Source: Magnetococcus sp. DMHC-6 (GTDB lineage Bacteria; Pseudomonadota; Magnetococcia; Magnetococcales; JADFZT01). Taken from it: a DNA stretch of 64,000 nucleotides. The stretch spans positions 25,462 to 89,461 of the forward strand of contig JAMOAW010000002.1 in assembly GCA_039908535.1 (NCBI GenBank), written 5' to 3'. Each line of letters starts with the position of its first letter. The stretch's first letter is position 1. Shown here in pieces: positions 190-56,912 of this stretch. The translations under genes and the position numbers were made by a program. The notes beneath the pieces were generated by a model, which ran no database searches, was not told where the DNA came from, and saw nothing but the letters and a program-made list of their open reading frames with translations.

Positions 190-2432
190 CTACTCATCAA
201 GAGTCTCCAAATTTACGGTTACATCTTGAATATTTTTTTGTTCTTCTTCTGAATTTTGTCTTAATTCCAATTCAAGCCACTTCAAACCCTCATCAATGTA
301 ATGAGGCACTTTCCAATTATTATGCTTATCATCATTATTCATCATAATCAGGTTAAGTGCAAACTCTGTTTTCTTGAATGTACGTGACCAAACACGATTA
401 AACAATGCTTTTGCTATATCATCTAACGATTTTTTTTTCGAAACGCTTAAATTTAGTTTTTTGCGTGAGGAATGCTGACACCAATCTAAATTTTCCAATG
501 CAAACATCTCTTCAAATGTACGACCTACCAATAGTTTACTGTTTCCTTCCCAGGAAATTAATTGGTTAGTTTGAAAGGCTATGCGAATTTTTTTTGTAAT
601 GATTTTTTCATCCTCTTTTAATGATAGAAGTTCTTCGATCTTTATTGTATTCAATAATAACTTTTCAATGGTTTTATTTGATGTTATAGCACCAGGTGTT
701 GTTGTTTGACATGTGCCTTTAGGTTTTTTAGTATTTCCTTCTCCCTTTTCGGTATCTGTATTTTTAACATGTTCATGGATGCTATCTAAATCTGTAATTA
801 TAAGTGTAATAATCCCCAAAAACTCAATTAAATCTCTAAAAATATGGGCAAATGCACCACCGACTTCTAGAATACTCAAATATCGGAATTGAAGATCTTT
901 AGCTACCTTTTCGATTATTAAAGGTAACAATAACCGTTCGACATTGCCCTCTACAAGAATGGCAGCATCTGCAAAAAATAGATCACAATGGGTAAGTTTC
1001 ATGTATCGAATGAGAAATGCTTTTTCATCTTCACCAGAATCTCCTTTTTTAAATTGTGCAAGATTCAATACTCGACTATGGGAACGACATTCTTTCGTCA
1101 CCTCACGACGAAAATATCGTATAGAAGAAAAACCAGTTTCATAGAGGATATGAGGAGAATGGGTGGTAACTACCAATTGTGTTGATAATGTTTCTCCTAT
1201 TGGCATATTCAGGCTCAATGCTTTAAATACTTGACGAATAAATACTTGTTGAAGTTGGACGTGAAGGTGAGCCTCTGGTTCTTCAATAATGATCAAATGG
1301 AGCGGAGGGGGGGCAGGTACTAACCTCTTTTCTTTATAGTCGAGCAATTCCAAAATCATGTAAATCATATTTTTGAACCCTAACCCATTGTATCTGTCCG
1401 GCAAAGTCATATCAGAATCGTTATTTGCATCTAATCCTGGAAGACTATAATGGACCTCTGCATTCTCCTTTAATACACTTTCTGAATAATGGTTGCCCGC
1501 ACATTAAGGCGTGGCATGGTCAGGTTGGGATGTCCCATCCCCATTTCTTCTAAAGCTTTAAAAGTTGGCCTAAAAACAGTTGAAAACATTGAATTTATTA
1601 TTTGCTCTGACTCATTAATGGCTTGCATAACTTTATAATTATTTACTTTTTCTTTGTTATGCTGTTTAAAAAAGCGGCTGAAAAGTTTTGATAGATTTTC
1701 TGAACGAACAGAAGAATGAGAGGATTCCTTATCCGTCAGATGCCTCTGTGCATCCATGACATCTACTCTAATAAGATTATTCAAGACTACTTTACATTTC
1801 TCCCCCGTCTCTTCAAGGAGCGGAAAAGGGGTATAGTTTTCCTTTTTCTTATGGCCCTCAAATTCGGCATGATCCAAAACATAATAGTGAATGGCATATG
1901 ACTCATAGAGTTGTTTTGACAAATAATCGCAAAGATTTTTAGGCCATGGATGAAAATCTGATGTTTTTTCCTTCTGGTGAATACTTATATTGTCTTTAGC
2001 TTCTTGGCTGGCATTTTTAAAATCTTCTAGCAGCTTTGTTACATTTTTTGGTTTCCACTGTAAGCGTACACCTATCTTAGTACCTGTCCATTCCAGGCTT
2101 GGTATTAGGTGGATAACATGACGTAAATCACTATCTACGATTTCAAACCACATATCCAGGGTGATACAGGGAAAATCATTCGAGTCCACCTCTTTATTTT
2201 TTAAAGCTTGGTCTCCAAGTCGGTTAAATTCCTTCCAACATGGCGCATAAAAATCATGAAGAGTAAATCGCTCCCCAGCAGAAGAGTCTTTTAAAAATGG
2301 AATAAGTACGTGAGTGGCTGAAGTTTTGCCACTATTATTAGCACCAACAAAAAAAGTTGTTTCCTTGTCCATTTCAATATGAACATCTTTTAATCGGCGA
2401 TAATTTTTAATATGAAGCGATTCAAGACGCAT
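190..2432 (-). pseudogene. OLD-family ABC-type ATPase + Toprim nuclease (class 2 OLD / Gabija GajA-like), reading frame broken once (ORFs 1470..2432 and 190..~1500)
   Basis: N-terminal ORF: MRLESLHIKNYRRL...GANNSGKTS (Walker A). C-terminal ORF: signature-like NGLGFKN, Walker B LHLIIIEEPEAHLH, Toprim Glu (ILVEGNVERLLLP) and DxD (IITDLDS). Both frames are open across ~1470-1500. A 1-nt indel there would join ...PRLNVR to GNHYSESVLKENAEVHYSLPG.... Confidence 0.7.
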
Positions 2433-2649
2433 TTTTTTTATCCATAGAGGTAATTGCAAAAACCGGTAAAAATGGAAATTTATGGACCTTTTGAATCACA
2501 AAGGATCGTAATTTAACGTCCTTTCTGGTATTATGTGTTTGCTAAAAACGATCATAAACACAAGAAAGGACGGAAGAAAATGAATAGTCTTCGAGATGGA
2601 TTATCGCTTATTTGGAACAGAATTCAAGGGTCATTATTTCCTGAGCTTA

Positions 2650-3658
2650 GAAAATTCGGTGACACAATACCAAGAAAATTCGGTGACACGAAAATTCGGT
2701 GACACGAAAATTCGGTGACACGAAAATTCGGTGACACAATACCTAATTGCTTTTTCAACACGAAAATTCGGTGACACAATACCTAATTGCTTTTTCACAC
2801 GAACACGAAAATTCGGTGACACAATACCTCACGAAAATTCGGTGACACAATACCTAATTGCTTTTTCACACGAACACGAAAATTCGGTGACACAATACCT
2901 AATTGCTTTTTCGAAAATTCGGTGACACAATACCTAATTGCTTTTTCACACGAAATTTCGGTGACACAACGAAATTTCGGTGACACAATATATAATTGCT
3001 CGACGAAATTTCGATGACACAATATATCACGAAATTTCGGTGACAAAAATTTCGGTGACACAATACCTACAAAAATTTCGGTGACATACAAAAATTTCGG
3101 TGACACAATACCTAATTGCTTTTTCCATAAAAATTTCGGTGACAAATAAAAATTTCGGTGACACTAAATTTCGGTGACAAACACTAAATTTCGGTGACAC
3201 AATACCTAAATAAAAATTTCCACTAAATTTCAATAAAAATTTCGGTGACACAATACCTAATTGCTTTTTCCAAATAAAATACCTAAATAAAAATTTCGGT
3301 GACACAATACCTAATAAAAATTTCGGTGACACAATACCTAATTGCTTTTTCCAAATAAAAATTTCAATAAAAATTTCGGTGACACAATACCTAATTGCTT
3401 TTTCCAAATATAAAAATTTCGGTGACACAATACCTAATTGCTTTTTCCAAATACAATAAAAATTTCGGTGAATACCTAATTGCTTTTTCCAAATAAAAAT
3501 TTCGGTGACAAATAAAAATTTCGACACAATACCTTAAAAATTTCGGTGACACAATACCTAATTGCTTTTTCCAAGCACTAAAAATTTCGGTGACATAAAA
3601 ATTTCCAAATTTCGGTGACACCAAATTTCGGTGACACAATACCTAATTGCTTTTTCCA
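2650..3658 (+). repeat. Nested ('stuttered') tandem array of a ~36-bp unit (A)AAAT(T)TCGGTGACACAATACCTAATTGCTTTTTC(C)
   Basis: By eye there are about 32 copies of the core TTCGGTGA. 13 of them run the full length through AATACCTAATTGCTTTTTC. The rest stop early (after GACA, GACAC, ...AATACC) and restart at the same 5' point. Unit flanks drift along the array (CACGAAAATTCGG, then CGAAATTTCGG, then ATAAAAATTTCGG). Confidence 0.95.
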
Positions 3659-4109
3659 AGGGAATTCCCGCATGTCACCAGAATTCCCGCAGATTTCTCT
3701 CTACCTGCTGAAAGCGGCGTTTCAGAAAGCCAAGCACTGAAAGATCTGTTCGAGGGAAAACTGCCTGCCTTCATGACACAGCCCTAAGTGCTGACTGGTC
3801 ACATCTATTCGCCCCTTCTGCCGATTTGGCAGGGTGGTGCTGAAGTTACCGGCGTAGAAAGGTATTTCTACTGGAGGCTGTGCATCGTCCGCCGCTATCC
3901 TGACGGCTTCTGTAACTGATTTTCTTGAAGACTGCCTATTTGTAATCGTATTTTAAGATACAGACCCGTTTTTTGAGAACCACCCCCATTTTGACCACAC
4001 CCCCGACATCTCAAACAATTCTCTTGAAAATTACCGACAATGTAACTATATTTTTAATATAAAGACTCTTTCTAATCATTTTTTGAGAGCCGTAACGATT
4101 TTTTGAGGT

Positions 4110-5621
4110 GTGATGACATTGGACACGGCACAGAACCGGCTGGCAGGCTATGCGTTTCTGATAGAGCAATACGAGTTGAATACTTTGCCGAACTGGCACA
4201 CCTCCTCAGTCAGCCCGATGGGGACGCTACGCTCGACTATTCAGGATGGGCAGGTGGAATCCGTCTATCCCCACTCCTATTGGCCCGGAGACGGAACGGG
4301 AGACCATCTGGAGTTCGCCCTCAAGTATGACGGTGTCAATCTTGGTATCCTGTCGGCCCTTTTCGACGTGGTTCCAGCAGACGAGATAGCGGCCTGGATC
4401 AGCTCGAAACCAACCGGGAAATACGCCCGCAGGATCTGGTTCCTGTATGAATTCCTGACCGGACGGAAACTTCCGCTGCCGAATCTGATCAAGGGGAATT
4501 ACATTGAGCTGCTTGAGTCGAACCGTTACTACACCACAGCACCCGGTCGTCGCATGCAGCGTCAGAGAGTCATCGACAATCTGCTTGGCGGGAAAGATTT
4601 CTCTCCCATCATCCGGCGCACCGAAAAGCTCGCCGTCATGGAAGGACTCGACCTGCAGAAACGGTGCGAAGAGGTCGTGACCTCCTATCCACCGGAGCTC
4701 CTCAGACGGGCACTAAGCTACCTGTATAACAAAGAGACCAAATCCTCATTCGAGATCGAACACATCAAGCCGAGTGCCTCCCGGATAGAGAAATTCATCG
4801 GCTTGCTGGAGATGGCCGAGCACAGAGACTTTTGCGAGAAGCCTCTCCTGATCGACGTGCAGAACCGCATCGTCGATCCCCGATTTCAAGACACGGACTA
4901 CCGGGCCAACCAGAATTATGTCGGTCAGACTATTTCCTACCAGAAGCAGCTCGTTCACTATGTCTGCCCGAAGCCCGACGACCTCCCGGAACTGATGGCG
5001 GGACTACTCGCTGCCCATCAAGTGATGAAGGAGGGCGCGGTCCCCGCCATTATCCATGCCGCCGCCATCTCCTACGGATTCCTCTTCATGCATCCCTTTG
5101 AGGATGGCAACGGCCGTATTCACCGGTTTCTCATTCACAATATTCTGTTCCTGCGCGGCGAGATCCCGAAAGGGCTCATGTTCCCGGTCTCCGCCGCCAT
5201 GCTGAAAAATATGGCACTTTACGATCACTCCCTGAAGGCGTTCTCAAACCCGCTGATGCGGCTGGTTGAATACGACCTGGACGATCTCGGCCAAATGACC
5301 GTGCCGGATGTGACCGGACCTCTGTACAGGTACATCGACATGACCGCTCAGGCGGAGGCGTTGTATGATTTCATCAAGCTCACCATTGAGCACGAACTGT
5401 TGGAAGAACTCGATTTTCTGGCGAATTACGACAAGACCAAGCAGGCCATTCAGGAAATCGTGGACATGCCTGACCGACTCATTGATCTTTTTATCCAGCT
5501 CTGCCTGCAAAACAATGGTCGCCTTTCGGCGAAAAAGAGGGAATCGCATTTCGGGTTTCTGACCGATGACGAGTTGGCCGACATGGAAAATTCCGCCCGG
5601 GAAGGATACGCGAGGGAGTGA
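4110..5621 (+). CDS. Fic/DOC family protein (AMPylase-type fold) with long N-terminal extension
   Basis: Canonical Fic motif HPFEDGNGRIHRFL in a 503-aa ORF. GTG 4110 / ATG 4113 start. The surrounding 3660-5650 segment is visibly more GC-rich than both flanks. Confidence 0.85.
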   Translation: MMTLDTAQNRLAGYAFLIEQYELNTLPNWHTSSVSPMGTLRSTIQDGQVESVYPHSYWPGDGTGDHLEFALKYDGVNLGILSALFDVVPADEIAAWISSKPTGKYARRIWFLYEFLTGRKLPLPNLIKGNYIELLESNRYYTTAPGRRMQRQRVIDNLLGGKDFSPIIRRTEKLAVMEGLDLQKRCEEVVTSYPPELLRRALSYLYNKETKSSFEIEHIKPSASRIEKFIGLLEMAEHRDFCEKPLLIDVQNRIVDPRFQDTDYRANQNYVGQTISYQKQLVHYVCPKPDDLPELMAGLLAAHQVMKEGAVPAIIHAAAISYGFLFMHPFEDGNGRIHRFLIHNILFLRGEIPKGLMFPVSAAMLKNMALYDHSLKAFSNPLMRLVEYDLDDLGQMTVPDVTGPLYRYIDMTAQAEALYDFIKLTIEHELLEELDFLANYDKTKQAIQEIVDMPDRLIDLFIQLCLQNNGRLSAKKRESHFGFLTDDELADMENSAREGYARE

Positions 5622-5707
5622 GCTTCCAGGAACTCGTCAAAGTCGGTTGGAACCATGGGTTACAGGCCCCCAGGAGGGGGAGAGTTTTCCAGGGTTTTGC
5701 TGCGAAG

Positions 5708-15441: not shown

Positions 15442-16155
15442 TTATTTATACACATGAAACTCAATTCGGCGGTTTTTTGGATTTTCGGGGTCTAAACCCG
15501 CAATAGGTTTCGTTTTTCCCATACCAACGGGAACCAAACGCCAATCTTCAATGCCATTACGGACCAGATAATCTTTGACCGACATGGCCCTTTGCCAAGA
15601 CAATTGACGATTCATTTCATCATTCCCAACCGCATCCGTGTGTCCTTCAACAATTAAAGTAGAATTTTTTGCAGCTGGTGATTTGAGTGCTTCTGCCATA
15701 GTGTTCAAATAGTCATAGGTTGCAGACGATAAAGCTGCAGAACCACTTTTAAACTGTATCGGAAAGGAGACTCCCCCAGAAGAACCGCGTTCTGACTTCG
15801 TTTGAGATAATTCAGAGGGCACAGCTTGTTTCGCACTCTCTTTCGCACTCTCTTTCGCACTCTCTTTCGCACTCTCTTTCGCACTCTCTTTCGCAACTTC
15901 ATTCGAGGGAGCAGGGGAGGGGGTGGTTTTAAATTGAATAGATCTTGTTTTACGCTCTTTCTTAGGCTCAGAAGAGGGCTCAGAAGGAGGAGTAGCCGCA
16001 GAATCAAATAAAATATTTACCAATTCAGAAGCCTCTGGTGCTTTTTCATAAACTTTGGCATCACTCACATCACCCCCGATAACTAAATTTGGAGATAATA
16101 TAGAAGCACTCAGAACAATTGCGAATGATAATTTTAAAAAATCTTTTTTTATCAT
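15442..16155 (-). CDS. OmpA/MotB-type peptidoglycan-binding protein with (AKES)n linker
   Basis: C-terminal LIVEGHTDAVGNDEMNRQLSWQRAMSVKDYL...RRIEF (OmpA_C). N-terminal signal peptide. Confidence 0.85.
   Translation of the reverse strand: MIKKDFLKLSFAIVLSASILSPNLVIGGDVSDAKVYEKAPEASELVNILFDSAATPPSEPSSEPKKERKTRSIQFKTTPSPAPSNEVAKESAKESAKESAKESAKESAKQAVPSELSQTKSERGSSGGVSFPIQFKSGSAALSSATYDYLNTMAEALKSPAAKNSTLIVEGHTDAVGNDEMNRQLSWQRAMSVKDYLVRNGIEDWRLVPVGMGKTKPIAGLDPENPKNRRIEFHVYK
15833..15895. repeat. 12-bp in-frame tandem repeat GCACTCTCTTTC x5 (+ partial), encoding (AKES)n in the OmpA-like gene
   Basis: Five perfect units read directly at 15833-15892. Confidence 0.9.
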
Positions 16156-23838: not shown

Positions 23839-24051
23839 TATTTAAATCCTGATTTTCCCCAAATATTTTTTGTTTAATTTTTTTTATTCCAAAATCATGA
23901 CGTACAATTTTTTTAAAAAAACTTAACATATCTTGACATTTATATCAATATTTGATAAATTCTATATAAACATAAAGAAAAAAAATAAAAAGATGGCGTT
24001 TCTGACGCAATTAGGGTGAACGATTCTTCAATAATATGGAAGGATAGTGCT

Positions 24052-24990
24052 ATGTTTAAATATAAAATTTTATTTTTATCTATTTTTTTTGTTGTATTAA
24101 CTCTCTCCATGACGGTTCATGCGGCACCTACTCCTGTAGAATTATTAATGCAGGTAAAAGGAGATGTTTTCTACAGTCATGAGGGGGGAGAATGGAAAGC
24201 CGTCCACCGTAATAAATATCTATTTCCTGGCGATCAGATTAAAACTGAAAATGGGGGATCTGGTCGTCTTATTAACCAAAAGAAACAACAGTACCGCACC
24301 TTAGGTCCCAATACCCTTCTTAAAATTAACGATGACCAAGCCTCGTTGGTCTCTGGGACTTCCCTTTCAGATTTTCAAGCCTTAGATGAACTCTCAAGCT
24401 CAGTCACCAATTTGTTTTCCAATTCACAAATGTATACCACAAAACGACGCAGTATCTTACACAAAGAGACGATCCATTTGGAAACCATCCAAAAAATAAC
24501 TTTGTCCAATACATATCCAGAGTTAATTTGGGAAGAGCTCGGCCCACAATACAGCTACCGATTAACCATAGATGATCATAGTGTCGATATCCATGGAACA
24601 AACAATGAAATCGTCCGATATAAAATTTCCGAACTTTCGCCCGGAGAACATCCATACAAGGTGGAACTCTTGAAAGATGGCAAGGTGATCGAAAGCCCAA
24701 AAAAAGCAACAGTCATTCGTTGGCTATCTCATGATGAGATGGAAATCATCTCTCAAGAAATGGAAAAAATTCGGCATTTAATCCCAGATGACGATTTAAT
24801 CCTGGCCAGTTATTTGGAAGAAAAAGGGTTGGCTGTCGCGGCTATGGACATGTACCAAAAATATTTCAAAGAAAATCCTGAGGACGTGGATATGCGTCCT
24901 ATGATGATTCAATCTTATTATAACCTAAAATTGACCAATCTAAGGAAAAAAGAGATGATCAATTTTAGCTCGAGTGAAAGTGGAAAATAA
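24052..24990 (+). CDS. Secreted protein with FecR-like N-terminal domain
   Basis: MFKYKILFLSIFFVVLTLSMTVHA signal. VKGDVFYSHEGGEWKAV..NKYLFPGDQIKTENGGSGRL resembles the FecR domain pattern. The ORF maximum starts at 24016. Confidence 0.5.
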   Translation: MFKYKILFLSIFFVVLTLSMTVHAAPTPVELLMQVKGDVFYSHEGGEWKAVHRNKYLFPGDQIKTENGGSGRLINQKKQQYRTLGPNTLLKINDDQASLVSGTSLSDFQALDELSSSVTNLFSNSQMYTTKRRSILHKETIHLETIQKITLSNTYPELIWEELGPQYSYRLTIDDHSVDIHGTNNEIVRYKISELSPGEHPYKVELLKDGKVIESPKKATVIRWLSHDEMEIISQEMEKIRHLIPDDDLILASYLEEKGLAVAAMDMYQKYFKENPEDVDMRPMMIQSYYNLKLTNLRKKEMINFSSSESGK

Positions 24991-27032: not shown

Positions 27033-27190
27033 GATCGAGTATCCAAAATTTTAAGATGGTAAAAAAATAATCCTTTCCAGATAAATTGGATATTAGGCTT
27101 GGATGATCGTGGCCGCAAGTATTTTTAAAAAAATGGAGATATTATAATTTAACATAATATACATTATACGACATTTATGAAAACCAAGCT

Positions 27191-27345
27191 TTGACCATTT
27201 TAATATGGTCTCCTTTAGTATAGTCTCCCTTATGGAAACCAATCTTAGTATGGTTTCCATAAGGGAAACCAATCTTTGACCATTTTTGACCATTTAGTAT
27301 GGTCTCCCTTTTTTGACCATTTTAGTATGGTCTCCCTTATGGTAT
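27191..27345 (+). repeat. Nested partial tandem copies of TTGACCATTT(T)AGTATGGTCTCCCTTATGG, each containing the dyad GACCAT-N5/6-ATGGTC, plus a perfect 15-bp hairpin
   Basis: Dyad copies at about 27193, 27285 and 27315, with a diverged copy. Perfect inverted repeat CCCTTATGGAAACCA (27227-27241) / TGGTTTCCATAAGGG (27251-27265). Lies in the metG / HD-GYP divergent intergenic region. Confidence 0.85.
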
Positions 27346-29621: not shown

Positions 29622-31828
29622 TTGGAGTATAAGGTGTTACAACGCCAATTGCTGCGTTACCTATTGAGCTTGGCGGTTCTTACCATTTTTTTATTGCACA
29701 CGCTGGATGTGCTGCCATTGCAATTTCTAAAACAAATGGAAAATGTTGCCTATGATCTTCGGGTGCGTATAACCATGCCAGAAACCCTGGATCCGCGTAT
29801 TGTTATTGTTGATTTAGATGAAAAAAGTCTTGCTAAAATAGGTCGTTGGCCCTGGGGACGGCAACACGTGGCGCGTTTGGTGGATTATTTGTTTAATTAT
29901 TATCAAATTAGTGTCTTGGGTTTTGATATCGTGTTTGCTGAACCGGATGAAAGTTCTGGTTTAAAAATTTTGGATAAATTGCTACAAAACGAACTCAAAG
30001 AAAACACCCTTTTTAAACTGCTATTTGCAAAAATTCGACCAACTCTAGAAAATGATAAAATTTTTGCCAGCCATTTAAAGGACCGAGCTGTTATTCTTGG
30101 CTATTATTTTCGTTCCGAAGCCATGAGTGGATCCACCTCTTCGGGTATGTTACCAGAACCTATTCTCACTTTGGATGAGTTTGAAAAGTCTAATATTCCT
30201 TTTTATGAGGCTCGTGAATTTGGGGCCAATTTACCTGATTTGCAAAAGGCGGCTCTCAATGCCGGCTTTTTTGATAGCCCTGCGGTGGGCGAAGACGGAG
30301 TATTTCGGAGTGCGCCCTTGATCCAAAAATATCAAAAAGGGCTTTACCAATCGTTATCCTTGGGAATTATCCGTGCCCTTTTGGGGGATCCTCCTTTGAC
30401 TTTTGGAATCGTTTCCACCACGGACAATCCACTTGAAACCGATTATGGATTGGAATGGGTGGGGGTCGGTGATTACAAAATTCCAGTGAACGAGCAAGCT
30501 GCGGTGTTGGTCCCCTATCGAGGCAAACAGGGCAGTTTTCCTTATGTCTCTGCCGTGGATATTTTAGAAAAGAAAGCTCCCCTTACTCTATTGAAAGATA
30601 CCATCGTCTTGGTCGGCACCTCGGCCCCTGGGCTCATGGATTTACGGACGACGCCCGTACAAAGTGTTTATCCAGGTGTGGAGGTACATGCCAATATCAT
30701 CAGCGGAATTTTGGATGGCAAGATTCATCAAAAACCTGGTTATTCTTTGGGAGTGGATCTTTTGACTCTTCTGTTTGTTGGTCTGACCATGACTTTTTTA
30801 TTACCTCATTTAGCCCCCGCCTGGACCACCTATGTGACGGTATTATTTTTATTTTTTCTCAGTTGGATCAATCTTCTTTTTTGGAAAGAATTCTATCTCG
30901 TTATAACCTATTCTACACCAATCATTTTGATTTTTATGATGTTTTTATTGCATATGTCCTATGGTTTTTTCGTAGAGTCCCGTGGCAAGCGACAGTTATC
31001 TAGAATGTTTGGTCAATATATTCCATCAGAATTGGTGGATGAGATGAATCAAAGTGGCAAGGATTTTTCTATTGGGGGGGAGTCTCGGGAAATGTCGGTA
31101 CTTTTTTCTGATGTTCGTGGATTTACCACCATTTCTGAAGGGCTTAACCCAGAGGAGTTGACCAATTTGATGAATGGCTTTTTAACACCGATGACCCATA
31201 TTATTCATGCGCATCGGGGAACGATTGATAAATATATGGGTGATGCGATCATGGCTTTTTGGGGAGCTCCTCTGGATGACCCCACCCATGCCCGCAATGC
31301 CGTTTTGGCTGGTCTTGCGATGATTGATGGCCACCTTTGACGATCGGTGTTGGGGTGAATAGCGGATTGATGAATGTAGGTAATATGGGATCGGAATTTC
31401 GCATGGCTTATACTGTTTTGGGAGATGCCGTCAATTTAGGGTCTCGTCTGGAAGGGTTAACCAAACAGTATGGTGTCCATATGATTATCGGTGCCTCTAC
31501 GCAACACATTGTCGGCGCACAGATTGCTTGTCGGGAGTTGGATCGGGTTCGTGTCAAAGGTAAGGACGAACCGGTGATTATCTATGAACCCATTGGCCCG
31601 GTTGAAGGTTTATCTCCTGAAATGCAATCGGAGTTAAACATTTATCATCAAGCGTTAGCCTTGTATCGAATGCAAAATTGGGAAGAGGCTCTTCAACGTT
31701 TTCGAGCTCTTCAGCAACGGGATCCAGAGCGGATGATCTATAATATCTATCGGCAGCGCATTCAACTCTTTCGTAACGAACCGCCTGGATCAGATTGGGA
31801 TGGGGTGTTTACCCATACCAGTAAATAA
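29622..31828 (+). pseudogene. CHASE2-sensor class III adenylate/guanylate cyclase, catalytic domain interrupted (ORFs 29622..31340 and 31337..31828)
   Basis: CHASE2-like periplasmic part and TM block. Cyclase motifs VLFSDVRGFTTISE, GTIDKYMGDAIMAFWGAP, then a stop at 31338. It continues in another frame as (WPP)[29 protein letters not shown]. Confidence 0.75.
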
Positions 31829-31834
31829 AACGAT

Positions 31835-32095
31835 GCGGCACCACCACACTTAACCGTAGTCGTCTGTTTTTTGATTTTATTATTTAAAAAAAAAGGGGTC
31901 TGGGGGATTGCCCCCAGGGTTTTGTTTTTGTTTTTGTTTTTGTTTTTGTTTTTGTTTTTGTTTTTGTTTTTGCTTTTGCTTTTGCTTTTGCTTTTGCTTT
32001 TGCTTTTGCTTTTGCTTTTGACCTCGGTTTTGCTTCCTTCAAACAGCAGGGGGATTGGGGGATGCAATCCCCCAAGGTCTTGACTTTGTTTTTAC
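31835..32095. mobile_element. MITE family 1, copy B (one terminus recognisable, other end degraded) carrying an expanded hexanucleotide repeat
   Basis: GCGGCACCACCACACTTAACCGTAG... aligns with copy C up to ...CCCCAAGGTCTTGACTTTG, then diverges. Lies between the convergent cyclase and terB. Confidence 0.7.
31919..32020. repeat. Hexanucleotide microsatellite: (TTTTTG) x8 plus a leading partial unit, then (CTTTTG) x8
   Basis: Counted directly. The homologous spot in MITE copies A and C has only 1-2 such units. Confidence 0.95.
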
Positions 32096-54367: not shown

Positions 54368-56912
54368 ATGAAAAAAGAGTCCGGGCATACGCCGATGATG
54401 GAGCAATTTTTGGCCATCAAAGCCGAATATCCGGGAACTCTGCTTTTTTATCGCATGGGGGATTTTTACGAACTCTTTTTAGACGATGCCATTCAAGCCG
54501 CACCCGTGATGGAGATCGCTCTCACCACCCGTGGAAGATCCAACGGTGAACCCATTCCCATGGCCGGGGTGCCGATTCATGCCGCTGAAAGCTATTTAAA
54601 AAAGCTTATTTTGGCGGGTTTTCGGGTGGCTATTTGTGAACAAATGGAACCCGCAGGCCAGAGCAAAGGCCCAGTCCGACGCGAAGTGGTCCGTTTGGTA
54701 ACGGCTGGGACCCTCACCGAAGAGGAACTATTAGAGGCACGAGCCAATAATTTTTTGGTCGCCATTGCCCCACCGCACCCTAAAGAGCTCCGCATTGGCA
54801 TTGCCGCCTTGGATCTTTCAACGGGTCAATTTCAAGTCGCCCGCGCCGATTCTTGGGATCAAGCCGCCGCCGAGTTATCTATTTTAAATCCCGCCGAGGT
54901 CATTGCCCCCACCGAATGGCATCCTGTGGAGCCGTTTTCCCCCTGGCTCAAAAAACTCACCCGCCGTCCAAATTGGGAATTTGACCCTGGGGAGGCCTCC
55001 CGGTTGCTCATGGACCATTTTTTGTCAATCCGCTGCCGGTGGCTTGCTGGCTTACTGCCGTGAAACCCAAAAAGATGCCTTGACCCATATTACGGGCCTC
55101 ACCCGTACCTATCCCGATGACACCCTTATTTTAGATGATGCCTGCCGCCGCAACCTGGAGATAAATGTCAGTTTGCGCACCAATCAACGCAAAGGAAGCC
55201 TTGGCGATCTTCTGGATACCGCCCATACCGCTATGGGAGGGCGGCTTTTGCGCGGCTGGTTAAACCGTCCTTTGCGCAGTTGTTCTCTTATTCAACAACG
55301 TTTGGCGGGCGTCGAATGGTTTTTAAAACATTTTCAAAAACGGGAAACCGTCCGCCAAACTCTTAAAAAGGTCCACGATCTGGAACGTCTTTTAGGTCGC
55401 ATTGCCCTTAAACGCGCCTCACCAAGAGATTTGGGTGCCCTGCGGGATACCCTCAATTGCATTCCCCTTGTGGAACAACTGTTCACAGATCAAAAACTCC
55501 CGGAGATTTTGCAACAGGTATTACCTTCGTTATCTCAACATGCCGACTTGTCGGTCCGTTTAAACCAAACTTTGACCGATGAACCCCCCATTAAACTCCA
55601 AGATGGCAACGTCATTCGCCCCCTTTTCAACCCAGAACTGGATAAGTTACGCACCATCACCGAACATGGCAAAGAGTATCTGGCCGAATTGGAGCAACGG
55701 GAGAGAAAAAAAACCGGTATTTCTAGCCTCAAAATTGTCTATCATCACAGTTTTGGTTATACCCTACAAGTCACCAATACCCAACGGGATAAAGTACCCT
55801 ACCATTATATTCCCAAACAGACCATGGTAAACGCGGTCCGCTATGTAACCGAAGAGTTAAAACAAGAGGAAGAGACCATTCTAAATGCCGAAGTCAATCT
55901 GACTCACATGGAGGCTATGCTGTTTGAACAGTTGGCCCTTGAGGTGTCAGAACATGCGGCCTCTTTACAACAGACCGCTCATGCGTTGGCTGTTCTGGAT
56001 GTCCTGACCACCTTTGCCGATACCGCTCATCGGCGCAATTATTGCCAACCATACCTAGAAGAAGGCGACACCATTGACATTCGCAATGGCCGCCACCCGG
56101 TGGTAGAGGCTTTCAACGACACCCCTTTTGTCGCCAACGATACCCTCTTAAATACCACCACCAACCGCATTGCCCTCATCACTGGCCCCAACATGGCAGG
56201 CAAGTCCACCTTGATGCGTCAGGTGGCCCTTATTGTTCTCATGGCTCAAATGGGCTCTTTTGTGCCGGCAAGCAGTGCCAAAATTGGTTTGGTGGATCGT
56301 ATTTTTACTCGAATTGGGGCGGCCGATGATCTGGCCGGGGGGCGTTCAACCTTCATGGTAGAGATGACAGAAGCCGCGCACATTCTACACCATGCCACGC
56401 CTCGCTCTTTGGTGATTTTTGACGAAATCGGACGCGGCACCTCTACCTTGGATGGCCTGGCCATTGCTCGGGCCGTGGCCGAACATATTTATTCTTATAA
56501 CCGCTCACGCACCCTTTTTGCCACCCACTTCCATGAATTGACCATTTTGGAACAACTCAATCCCGGCATTGTCAACCATACTGTAGAGGTCAAAGAGGTT
56601 GAAGAGCAAATTCTTTTTCTACACACCATCATTCGCGGGGCCGCCGATCGTTCCTATGGTATCCACGTCGCCCAACTGGCAGGGCTCCCCGCCACCGTCA
56701 TCACCCGTGCCAATGCCATTTTGGCCGATCTAGAATCCAACGCACCCCAAAAGAAACGCCCTGCTAAACCGAATAAAACCCAAACGCAATTAAGCCTTTT
56801 TTTAGAACACCCTCCTGAACCAATCGTTTTGGAATTAAAACATATGAATCCAGACGATCTAACCCCCAAGCAAGCCTTGGAGTTACTTTATCGATTAAAA
56901 AAAATGGTTTAA
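54368..56912 (+). pseudogene. mutS: DNA mismatch repair protein MutS, reading frame broken near 55018-55025 (ORFs 54368..55063 and 54903..56912)
   Basis: N-terminus: [30 protein letters not shown]. After ...LLMDHF the frame changes at a T6 run and resumes [16 protein letters not shown].... The second ORF has Walker A GPNMAGKST and DEIGRGTST. Confidence 0.85.

Follow-up and report, generated by a model that had tools for sequence, protein, structure and literature searches.

The 64-kb window analysed here, the whole 64,000-nucleotide stretch from Magnetococcus sp. DMHC-6 (assembly GCA_039908535.1, contig JAMOAW010000002.1, positions 25,462 to 89,461 of the forward strand), carries near its left end a 1-kb tandem array set in a defence island. 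On its left lies gajA (190 to 2432, minus strand), encoding the OLD-family ATPase/TOPRIM nuclease of a Gabija system, and on its right a mobile Fic cassette (3850 to 5632, plus strand). The array itself (2651 to 3659, plus strand) sits where a preliminary description, made from the sequence alone, had placed it, and is a genuine stretch of non-coding DNA. It consists of 37 head-to-tail restarts of one ~40-bp unit: 12 are full length, one is full length with an internal deletion and 24 are truncated at the 3' end. We conclude that the array is a self-templated tandem expansion, unusual in its size, in that two thirds of its units are truncated, and in its strongly fixed restart zone.

The consensus unit reads (A)3-5(T)2-3CGGTGACACAATACCTAATTGCTTTTTC(C) followed by a short linker. 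We defined restarts by splitting the array at each A{2,}T{2,3}C, which places the 37 restarts between 2651 and 3623, all on one strand; the serial restarts of the preliminary description hold up, and by this split their number is 37 and not ~32. The 9-mer TTCGGTGAC in the unit core occurs 30 times in the window, always on the plus strand and between 2655 and 3635, where dinucleotide-preserving shuffles of the window yield 0.42 ± 0.62 copies and at most three. This core is exact in 30 of the 37 restarts and absent from seven, and one core is present only with a substitution. The 3' half, AATACCTAATTGCTTTTTC(C), is conserved as well as the core and is present in 13 units, the number described before as full length, uninterrupted in 12 and with an internal 4-nt deletion in one (at 3458). 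The remaining 24 units break off 3-21 nt into the body that begins with TTC and then restart. Units abut without spacers, as first reported, with nothing between cores except unit sequence or a linker of at most 11 nt. The variable linker that precedes a restart is G, CG, CACG or ACACG on the left and T, AT, AAT, AAAT or CACT on the right. Start-to-start spacing ranges from 10 to 54 bp (mean 27) and falls into residue classes 0, 1 and 2 modulo 3 in a ratio of 9/19/9; the array therefore lacks codon periodicity and is not a coding repeat, in agreement with the initial view.

Neighbouring units had been said to share private variants, and both the unit starts (A4T2, A3T3 and A5T3) and the linker types do fall into contiguous blocks. 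In the left zone (2651 to 2952, plus strand), 10 units start with GAAAATTC and have linkers of the CACG type; these A4T2 units (n=10) span 2651-2914, and the zone includes four tandem copies of a 16-bp truncated unit (2674-2737). The middle zone (2953 to 3044, plus strand) comprises four units with the palindromic CGAAATTTCG start, the A3T3 units (n=4) spanning 2953-3032, and holds the only point substitutions of the array (ATACC to ATATA and GGTG to GATG). The right zone (3045 to 3659, plus strand) is the largest, with 23 units that from 3045 onward are mostly of the A5T3 type; most have AAAAATTTC starts and CAAAT-type linkers, and A3T3 units also occur there after CACT or C.

The array was copied from itself, and its growth was local. 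The clearest case is an exact 71-bp tandem duplication at 2759 to 2900 (plus strand), in which 2759-2829 is identical to 2830-2900 and which is also the longest exact internal repeat of the array. Each 71-bp block holds a full unit with its idiosyncratic linker ACACGAACACG and then 26 nt from the start of the unit that follows, and the point where the two copies meet (ACCT|CACG) is what appears as the "truncated unit" at 2808. Truncated units are therefore the junctions left when adjacent DNA is duplicated in tandem out of register. A 52-bp composite of a 10-bp mini-unit and a full unit likewise recurs at a distance of 134 bp. When parsed self-referentially by the Lempel-Ziv (LZ) method, the whole array resolves into 64 copy operations and ~10 literal bases, with sources mostly 16-145 bp upstream. 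Copying also seems to have reached outside the array once: the 9-mer CCAAGCACT at 3571 to 3579 (plus strand) is identical to the right flank at 3729-3737 and is the source of the CACT linkers, and the junction TTTTTCCAAG|CACT shares this 9-mer with the flank, with a 5-nt overlap (CCAAG); the segment CCAAGCA likewise maps to that flank. This sharing indicates what would be one template switch to the right flank, 160 bp away. With ~6 point substitutions in the 1-kb array, copying must have far outpaced point mutation, so that the array is either young or fast-growing. The LZ parse, the 71-bp duplication and the flank 9-mer each display inserted sequence templated from nearby DNA, as is characteristic of serial slippage and of FoSTeS, in which a fork stalls and the template is switched. 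The local stepwise growth and template slippage put forward in the preliminary description are thus supported by the 71-bp duplication, the block-wise variants and the LZ parse. Exact multi-unit copies, block-wise variants and the flank switch also argue against copying from a fixed external template, such as an RNA used by a reverse transcriptase (RT) or in a telomerase-like manner.

At the right border, G+C content rises from 0.32 to 0.52 at position 3660. The preliminary description had the array close exactly at the Fic island; the switch in composition is indeed found there, and the Fic cassette begins ~190 bp further right (~3850). The inverted copy of the core claimed for this border is present as the pair AATTTCGGTGACA (3624-3636) and TGTCACCAGAATT (3673-3685), the former matching the complement of the latter at 11 of 13 positions, and so is the direct repeat of GAATTCCCGCA. 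Because GGGAATTCCC is palindromic, this direct repeat also forms a hairpin with an 8-bp stem at 3660 to 3688 (GGGAATTC-N13-GAATTCCC), whose loop and 3' arm hold the inverted partial unit start TGTCACCAGAATT. The sequence of this border hairpin had no match in viral contigs.

We located the landing and departure points of each jump with a minimum-jump parse, in which every zone was threaded on a circular consensus of its own. Seven of the 41 template positions of the right zone, formed by the linker CAAAT plus the initial As, receive 20 of its 27 jumps (P≈1e-10); when each distinct junction type is counted once, 14 of 21 land in this 7-nt anchor zone (P≈6e-7). In the left zone, the landing points of all seven jumps lie within the last five positions. 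Departures are more dispersed: only 5 of the 27 in the right zone fall within the anchor zone, and they cluster after TTTC (position 9), in GTGACAC (positions 13-17) and after ACCT (position 24). Truncation is strongly asymmetric, with 24 units truncated at the 3' end versus ~3 pieces that are 5'-truncated or internally deleted (3278, 3471 and 3523). The anchor consists of 8-12 consecutive A/T pairs, is partly palindromic and resembles the border-hairpin palindrome GGGAATTCCC. The anchoring of one end is real and statistically solid, and microhomology does not account for it.

We lean toward the explanation, held with modest confidence, that the array arose by self-templated tandem expansion through serial backward template switching (replication slippage) with one end fixed, and that it is selectively neutral. 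The ancestral ~40-bp segment would have had the form …CTTAG|AAAATTCGGTGACACAATACCTAATTGCTTTTTCCAAG|GGAATTCCC…. While the DNA was being replicated or a gap repaired, the nascent strand would have repeatedly left its template and re-annealed 10-150 bp back on local DNA. Every backward switch would add a copy starting 0-6 nt before the 8-12-bp A/T tract GAAATTTC and ending wherever the next switch occurred, and repeated switches would leave a series of units that are 5'-anchored and 3'-truncated. From the viewpoint of the opposite strand, the polymerase would depart at one fixed place, the A/T tract, and land at variable places; a fixed departure is what a stall or fraying site would be expected to give if slips occurred mainly on one nascent strand. 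Re-ligation of Okazaki-fragment 5' flaps from a preferred priming site would be an equivalent alternative. The border hairpin together with the weak A/T tract may be the stall or fraying point. As structural context for slippage we count the 8-bp hairpin at the right border and a (TTTTTG)n(CTTTTG)n repeat elsewhere in the window that also abuts G+C hairpins. The array would then be debris without selective effect, lying where an intergenic gap of the defence island is in decay, between the frameshifted gajA and the Fic cassette.

Several points weigh against this slippage model. Junction overlap averages 1.15 nt compared with 0.79 for random pairs (P=0.06, or P=0.21 for distinct junctions), and such weak microhomology means that simple microhomology-guided slippage does not explain the anchored restarts. 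The left zone taken by itself has a larger overlap (2.1 versus 0.75, P=0.008), driven by one junction that is repeated three times. Plain slippage further predicts equal numbers of 5'- and 3'-truncated copies, contrary to what the array contains, so an extra directional factor must exist, with candidates that include a bias between strands, a stall or priming site and a nick. In addition, the array was read from a single assembly and hence at one array length, and a 1-kb product is exceptionally large for bacterial slippage.

General models for events of this type are serial replication slippage, FoSTeS and break-induced replication mediated by microhomology (MMBIR) (PMC2621351, PMC3597517), and RecA-independent template switching at tandem repeats has been described in E. 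coli (PMC7145654). The array shares with the products of serial slippage, FoSTeS and MMBIR its many short-range switches, pieces templated within tens to hundreds of bp, junction overlaps of 0-4 nt and duplications mixed with small deletions. It differs from them in that dozens of events occurred at one site, compared with two to five, and in that the breakpoint is fixed to a 7-nt zone with microhomology not significantly above chance. Bacterial minisatellites, or variable number tandem repeats (VNTR), which arise by slipped-strand mispairing, are likewise head-to-tail, same-strand, intergenic repeats whose neighbours share variants. VNTR units, however, are uniform and change in register, whereas two thirds of the array units are out-of-register truncations of 10-27 bp; with 12 of 37 units full length and 24 such truncations, the array is not a simple VNTR, as had been stated. 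Unprocessed Okazaki 5' flaps, as in yeast rad27/FEN1 mutants and E. coli polA 5'-exonuclease mutants, yield tandem duplications. These resemble the array in that segments of 10-100 bp are duplicated, with one end at the 5' end of the fragment and a length set by strand displacement, but unlike the array they are single events scattered genome-wide and flanked by short direct repeats. We know of no flap-nuclease defect in this organism. Our search of the literature on 5'-anchored truncated tandem arrays in bacteria found no described precedent.

Foremost among the rival explanations, at what we judge to be a rather low probability, is a functional binding-site array for a sequence-specific protein that recognizes the core TTCGGTGACA; its possible roles would be those of iterons, a partition centromere, a titration decoy or a fork barrier. 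With the site confined to the 5' half, truncated units would survive, and the protein, if tightly bound, could act as the very fork barrier by which the slip end is fixed, making the array self-propagating. Such a site would be consistent with a 9-mer that is exact in 30 of 37 restarts, with one core carrying a substitution; with departures that cluster at the edges of GGTGACAC…ACCT (positions 9, 13-17 and 24), as a footprint-sized obstacle would give; with the inverted copy of the site at the border; and with the runs of truncated units at 16-20 bp spacing, which resemble iterons. The arrangement of the cores argues otherwise: they lie 15-83 bp apart, with neither helical phasing nor regular spacing (at 10.5 bp, Rayleigh R is 0.23, and the best period does not exceed that of shuffled spacings, P=0.84), and the core is missing in seven restarts. 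Since the 3' half is conserved like the core, conservation reflects youth and not selection. We found no DNA-binding, Rep, Par, regulator, transposase, integrase or RT gene near the array, and the window is chromosomal.

Outside the array, neither the remaining 63 kb of the window nor any collection searched contains the motif. Exact 24-, 20- and 18-mers of the unit had no occurrence in 185,579 species-representative genomes, in JGI metagenome contigs or in IMG/VR, a blastn search of 2433-4110 against plasmids and phages returned no unit copy, and both the array and its core motif are absent from five homologous Fic loci, which share DNA with our window only over 3850-5632. The preliminary description had proposed to look for the unit elsewhere, and on the genome collections and the window this search returned no other copy. 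Given the lack of phasing, of a partner par, rep or regulator gene, of the core in 7 of 37 restarts and of the motif elsewhere or at homologous loci, the dense protein-binding array suggested at first is not supported. Plasmid iterons and partition centromeres do resemble the array in having many same-orientation 10-20-bp sites without spacers in an A/T-rich setting. P1 incA, F sopC, R1 parC and the pSM19035 heptads have regularly spaced sites in 4-12 copies, an adjacent gene for the binding protein and a replicon that needs them; the array, in contrast, has neither regular spacing nor an adjacent binding-protein gene. A mobile-element end, whether an insertion sequence (IS)- or Tn3-type inverted repeat, an integron attC site or a miniature inverted-repeat transposable element, is not indicated either, with no other copies in the window or the collections and no transposase in the window. 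Nothing shows a function for the array.

We also find it improbable that the array is the scar of a repeated site-specific event (a nick, priming or strand transfer) at the unit start, each repair of which would copy the site and create new targets. The candidate agents would be a self-targeting GajA nicking nuclease, a preferred primase start with 5'-flap re-ligation, or an HUH/transposase-type enzyme. The strong anchoring, which microhomology does not explain, fits such an event, and gajA lies 219 bp off and is frameshifted, as expected were self-targeting selected against. The nicking motif of B. cereus GajA is TNNNS|RGGNNA (PMC8136825), and the unit core TTTCG|GTGACA (units 3086-3660) fits six of its seven specified positions, which would place the predicted nick next to the departure cluster at position 9. 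However, a six-of-seven fit is expected by chance about once per unit, units of the left zone fit at only five of seven positions, and the predicted nick lies 9-10 nt from the anchor zone. Moreover, the GajA encoded here is 35-47% identical to its nearest relatives, and the B. cereus motif may not be that of this GajA; we take the match as a lead only. Two other Gabija loci, those with the nearest GajA homologues, have no tandem repeats nearby, no transposase, Rep or RT gene occurs in the window, and the gajA frameshift is possibly a sequencing error. A bolder variant, to which we assign a still smaller probability, makes the array the fossil of a self-amplifying site-specific event, in which a fixed nick, priming site or barrier would break or stall replication and repair would duplicate the site. 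Its concrete version would be GajA autoimmunity, ended by the frameshift that splits gajA.

If amplification, sequencing or assembly had produced an artefact, or if an AT-rich and a GC-rich contig had been joined as a chimera, the change in composition at the right edge of the array would be accounted for; we regard such an origin as about as doubtful as a site-specific scar. The lineage is uncultured and absent from public collections, and three genes of the window have 1-nt homopolymer frame shifts that are suggestive of indel errors. The longest exact repeat of 71 bp, on the other hand, allows unambiguous assembly even from 150-bp reads, and more than 35 distinct, mutually consistent junctions are incompatible with random chimeras. 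AT-rich and GC-rich DNA also alternate elsewhere in the window within normal chromosomal genes, and both flanks of the array are ordinary defence-island content.

The three genes with 1-nt shifts, among ~55 in the window, are gajA, a CHASE2 adenylate cyclase gene and mutS. In gajA the shift lies at a short homopolymer near 1480-1495 and separates two open reading frames (ORFs; 1470-2432 and 190-1410); in the adenylate cyclase gene (29622-31828) it lies at the short homopolymer CACCTTTGACG near 31333. In mutS (54368-56912), one surplus T in a T6 run near 55030 splits the gene in two ORFs; once fused, the protein can be aligned with E. coli MutS over its whole length (E 3e-206) and is 15 residues shorter at the spot of the T6 run, a gap that is in frame. 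Judged from the assembly, these shifts could be either real frameshifts of a mutator lineage or residual indel errors. The mismatch-repair-defective background raised in the preliminary description could follow from the 1-nt homopolymer shift in mutS, for which a sequencing error is also possible. To our knowledge, MutS would leave loops of 10-70 nt uncorrected. Lovett and colleagues are said to have found that MutS restrains rearrangements between diverged tandem repeats.

We consider it very improbable that the array is an RNA- or RT-templated product (telomerase-like or template-jumping) copied from one constant template of ~40 nt, or a repeat that is transcribed into an RNA, for instance a type III antitoxin, even though its fixed start and variable stop resemble abortive template copying with re-alignment, its unit length of ~36-41 nt resembles ToxI repeats and it lies in a defence island, because the exact copies of multi-unit blocks with private linkers identify the array itself as the template, its variants are block-wise, genes for an RT or an endoribonuclease toxin are lacking, the unit shows neither a significant fold nor an Rfam match at E≤5, and unit lengths are irregular. 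Irregular telomerase repeats of budding and fission yeast and the HeT-A/TART arrays of Drosophila are similarly anchored at one end, variably truncated at the other and of single orientation. Those of yeast telomerase and HeT-A/TART are made from an RNA template at the chromosome end; the array, in contrast, is internal and self-copied, with no RT gene nearby. Type III antitoxin (ToxI, 36-nt repeats) and clustered regularly interspaced short palindromic repeats (CRISPR) arrays share with it ~36-nt repeats and a place in a defence island, but the array lacks spacers, cas genes and a toxN-type gene, and its irregular units show no significant folding. The unit folds no better than shuffles, as RNA or as DNA of either strand (z-score -0.1 to -1.7), and Rfam returned no match for the window at gathering thresholds or for 2400-4150 at E≤5. 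Abutting units and the lack of a Cas domain in any ORF of the window agree with the initial statement that this is not CRISPR. No ToxN-like match was obtained, and what follows the array is a 190-bp orphan segment and then the Fic gene.

Should the favoured explanation, self-templated expansion by serial backward template switching, be true, the array would document several dozen template switches, one after another, at a single bacterial locus, and as a natural record it would be exceptionally clean. It would also be a possible natural substrate for finding whether a slippage endpoint is fixed by a stall site, by priming, by a nick or by strand bias. By itself it reveals no new biological system, being a singleton without relatives, associated gene or sign of selection. 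The locus would be considerably more interesting if a site-specific rival were true (a barrier protein or Gabija self-nicking). A self-amplifying event would mean a new route to kilobase repeat arrays in bacteria and a visible scar of self-damage by a defence system.

Between the array and the Fic cassette lies an orphan spacer (3660 to 3849) of 190 bp and 52% G+C for which no homologue was found. A gene remnant in 3660-3950 was considered and rejected, as its 76-codon minus-strand frame matched only multi-stretch repetitive proteins in a search of 1.8 billion representatives. On the left, a small ORF with a ribosome-binding site starts at 2580 (MNSLRDGLSLIWNRIQGSLFPEL…; 2580 to 2650, plus strand) and enters the array after 23 codons. 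It has no homologue: tblastn against plasmids and Pfam at E≤10 both came back empty. We also rejected MNSLRDGLSLIWNRIQGSLFPEL as the start of an IS transposase, since a 62-aa reconstruction of the ORF with a single unit was without homologue. Just 5' of this ORF is an imperfect hairpin (2517 to 2572) with 16-nt arms that are 88% complementary. The arms, CGTCCTTTCTGGTATT … AACACAAGAAAGGACG, contain an inner GTGTTT/AAACAC pair and overlap the ribosome-binding site of the ORF at 2580, and the hairpin may be a regulatory element of the region divergent from gajA. The left flank of the array, CCTGAGCTTAG (2641-2650), and the 3' end of the Fic cassette (5619-5631, consensus CTGAGCTTCAAGG) have TGAGCTT in common. 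The unit end is TTCCAAGG, and ~0.2 chance matches are expected for sharing of the 8-mer TGAGCTT(C); we treat it as a coincidence or, at best, a possible weak lead.

The gajA halves are recognized by PADLOC as GajA with E values of 1e-85 and 1e-144, and gajB (UvrD-like) begins at 197 and continues beyond the window edge. A distance of 219 bp, close to the ~200 bp first reported, separates the beginning of the array from the start codon of gajA (at 2432 on the minus strand); gajA is transcribed away from it, so that the array is divergent to the OLD/UvrD operon and lies outside it. A search with GajA in viral contigs gave no match. A distant Gabija locus (GCA_015473145.1, BNJS01001733.1, 5001-8772) also has gajA called as two separate ORFs, one for the AAA_15 and one for the TOPRIM part, after which comes a weak UvrD-like gene.

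The Fic cassette is a neighbour of the array and separate from it. Its 502-aa protein (PADLOC PDC-S24, E 1e-178) has more than 100 protein clusters at 80-92% identity in several phyla, with members from Desulfuromonadales, Gammaproteobacteria, Bacteroidota, Syntrophobacteraceae and other groups. Cassette DNA is 86-92% identical in five loci with wholly different neighbours, and the identity takes in ~260 bp upstream and ~10 bp beyond the stop codon, with sharp boundaries. The array was accordingly rejected as a part of the cassette, because homology ends at ~3850 in the five independent loci.

The window is otherwise an ordinary chromosome, with lptFG, pepA, holC, ispDF, metG, flagellin, mutS and recQ. 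The nearest LptG among the 185,579 species genomes is 49% identical and comes from Magnetococcales metagenome-assembled genomes, and a magnetotaxis gene, MtxA, is found at 24016-24990 (Pfam MtxA Ig-like and C-terminal domains). Exact-protein look-ups with the N-terminal part of GajA, with Fic and with LptG gave no match, and the DNA probably comes from a magnetotactic lineage that is undescribed and missing from the public collections searched. Palindromic operator-like sites occur at 27190-27340, upstream of a GAF/HD-GYP gene (27395), with TTGACCATTTTAGTATGGTCTCC present ~4 times and GGAAACCAATCTTAGTATGGTTTCC twice. In a gap between convergent genes at 31890-32070, a microsatellite of (TTTTTG)~9 followed by (CTTTTG)~8 (repeat at 31920-32020) stands between two G+C-rich hairpins; it looks like an expanded terminator T-tract and is a second repeat expansion beside a hairpin. 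Finally, a perfect 12-mer repeat, TTTCGCACTCTC, is present in 5.6 copies at 15829-15895, in frame inside an OmpA-family ORF (15442-16155, minus strand), and is probably a variable-length peptide repeat.

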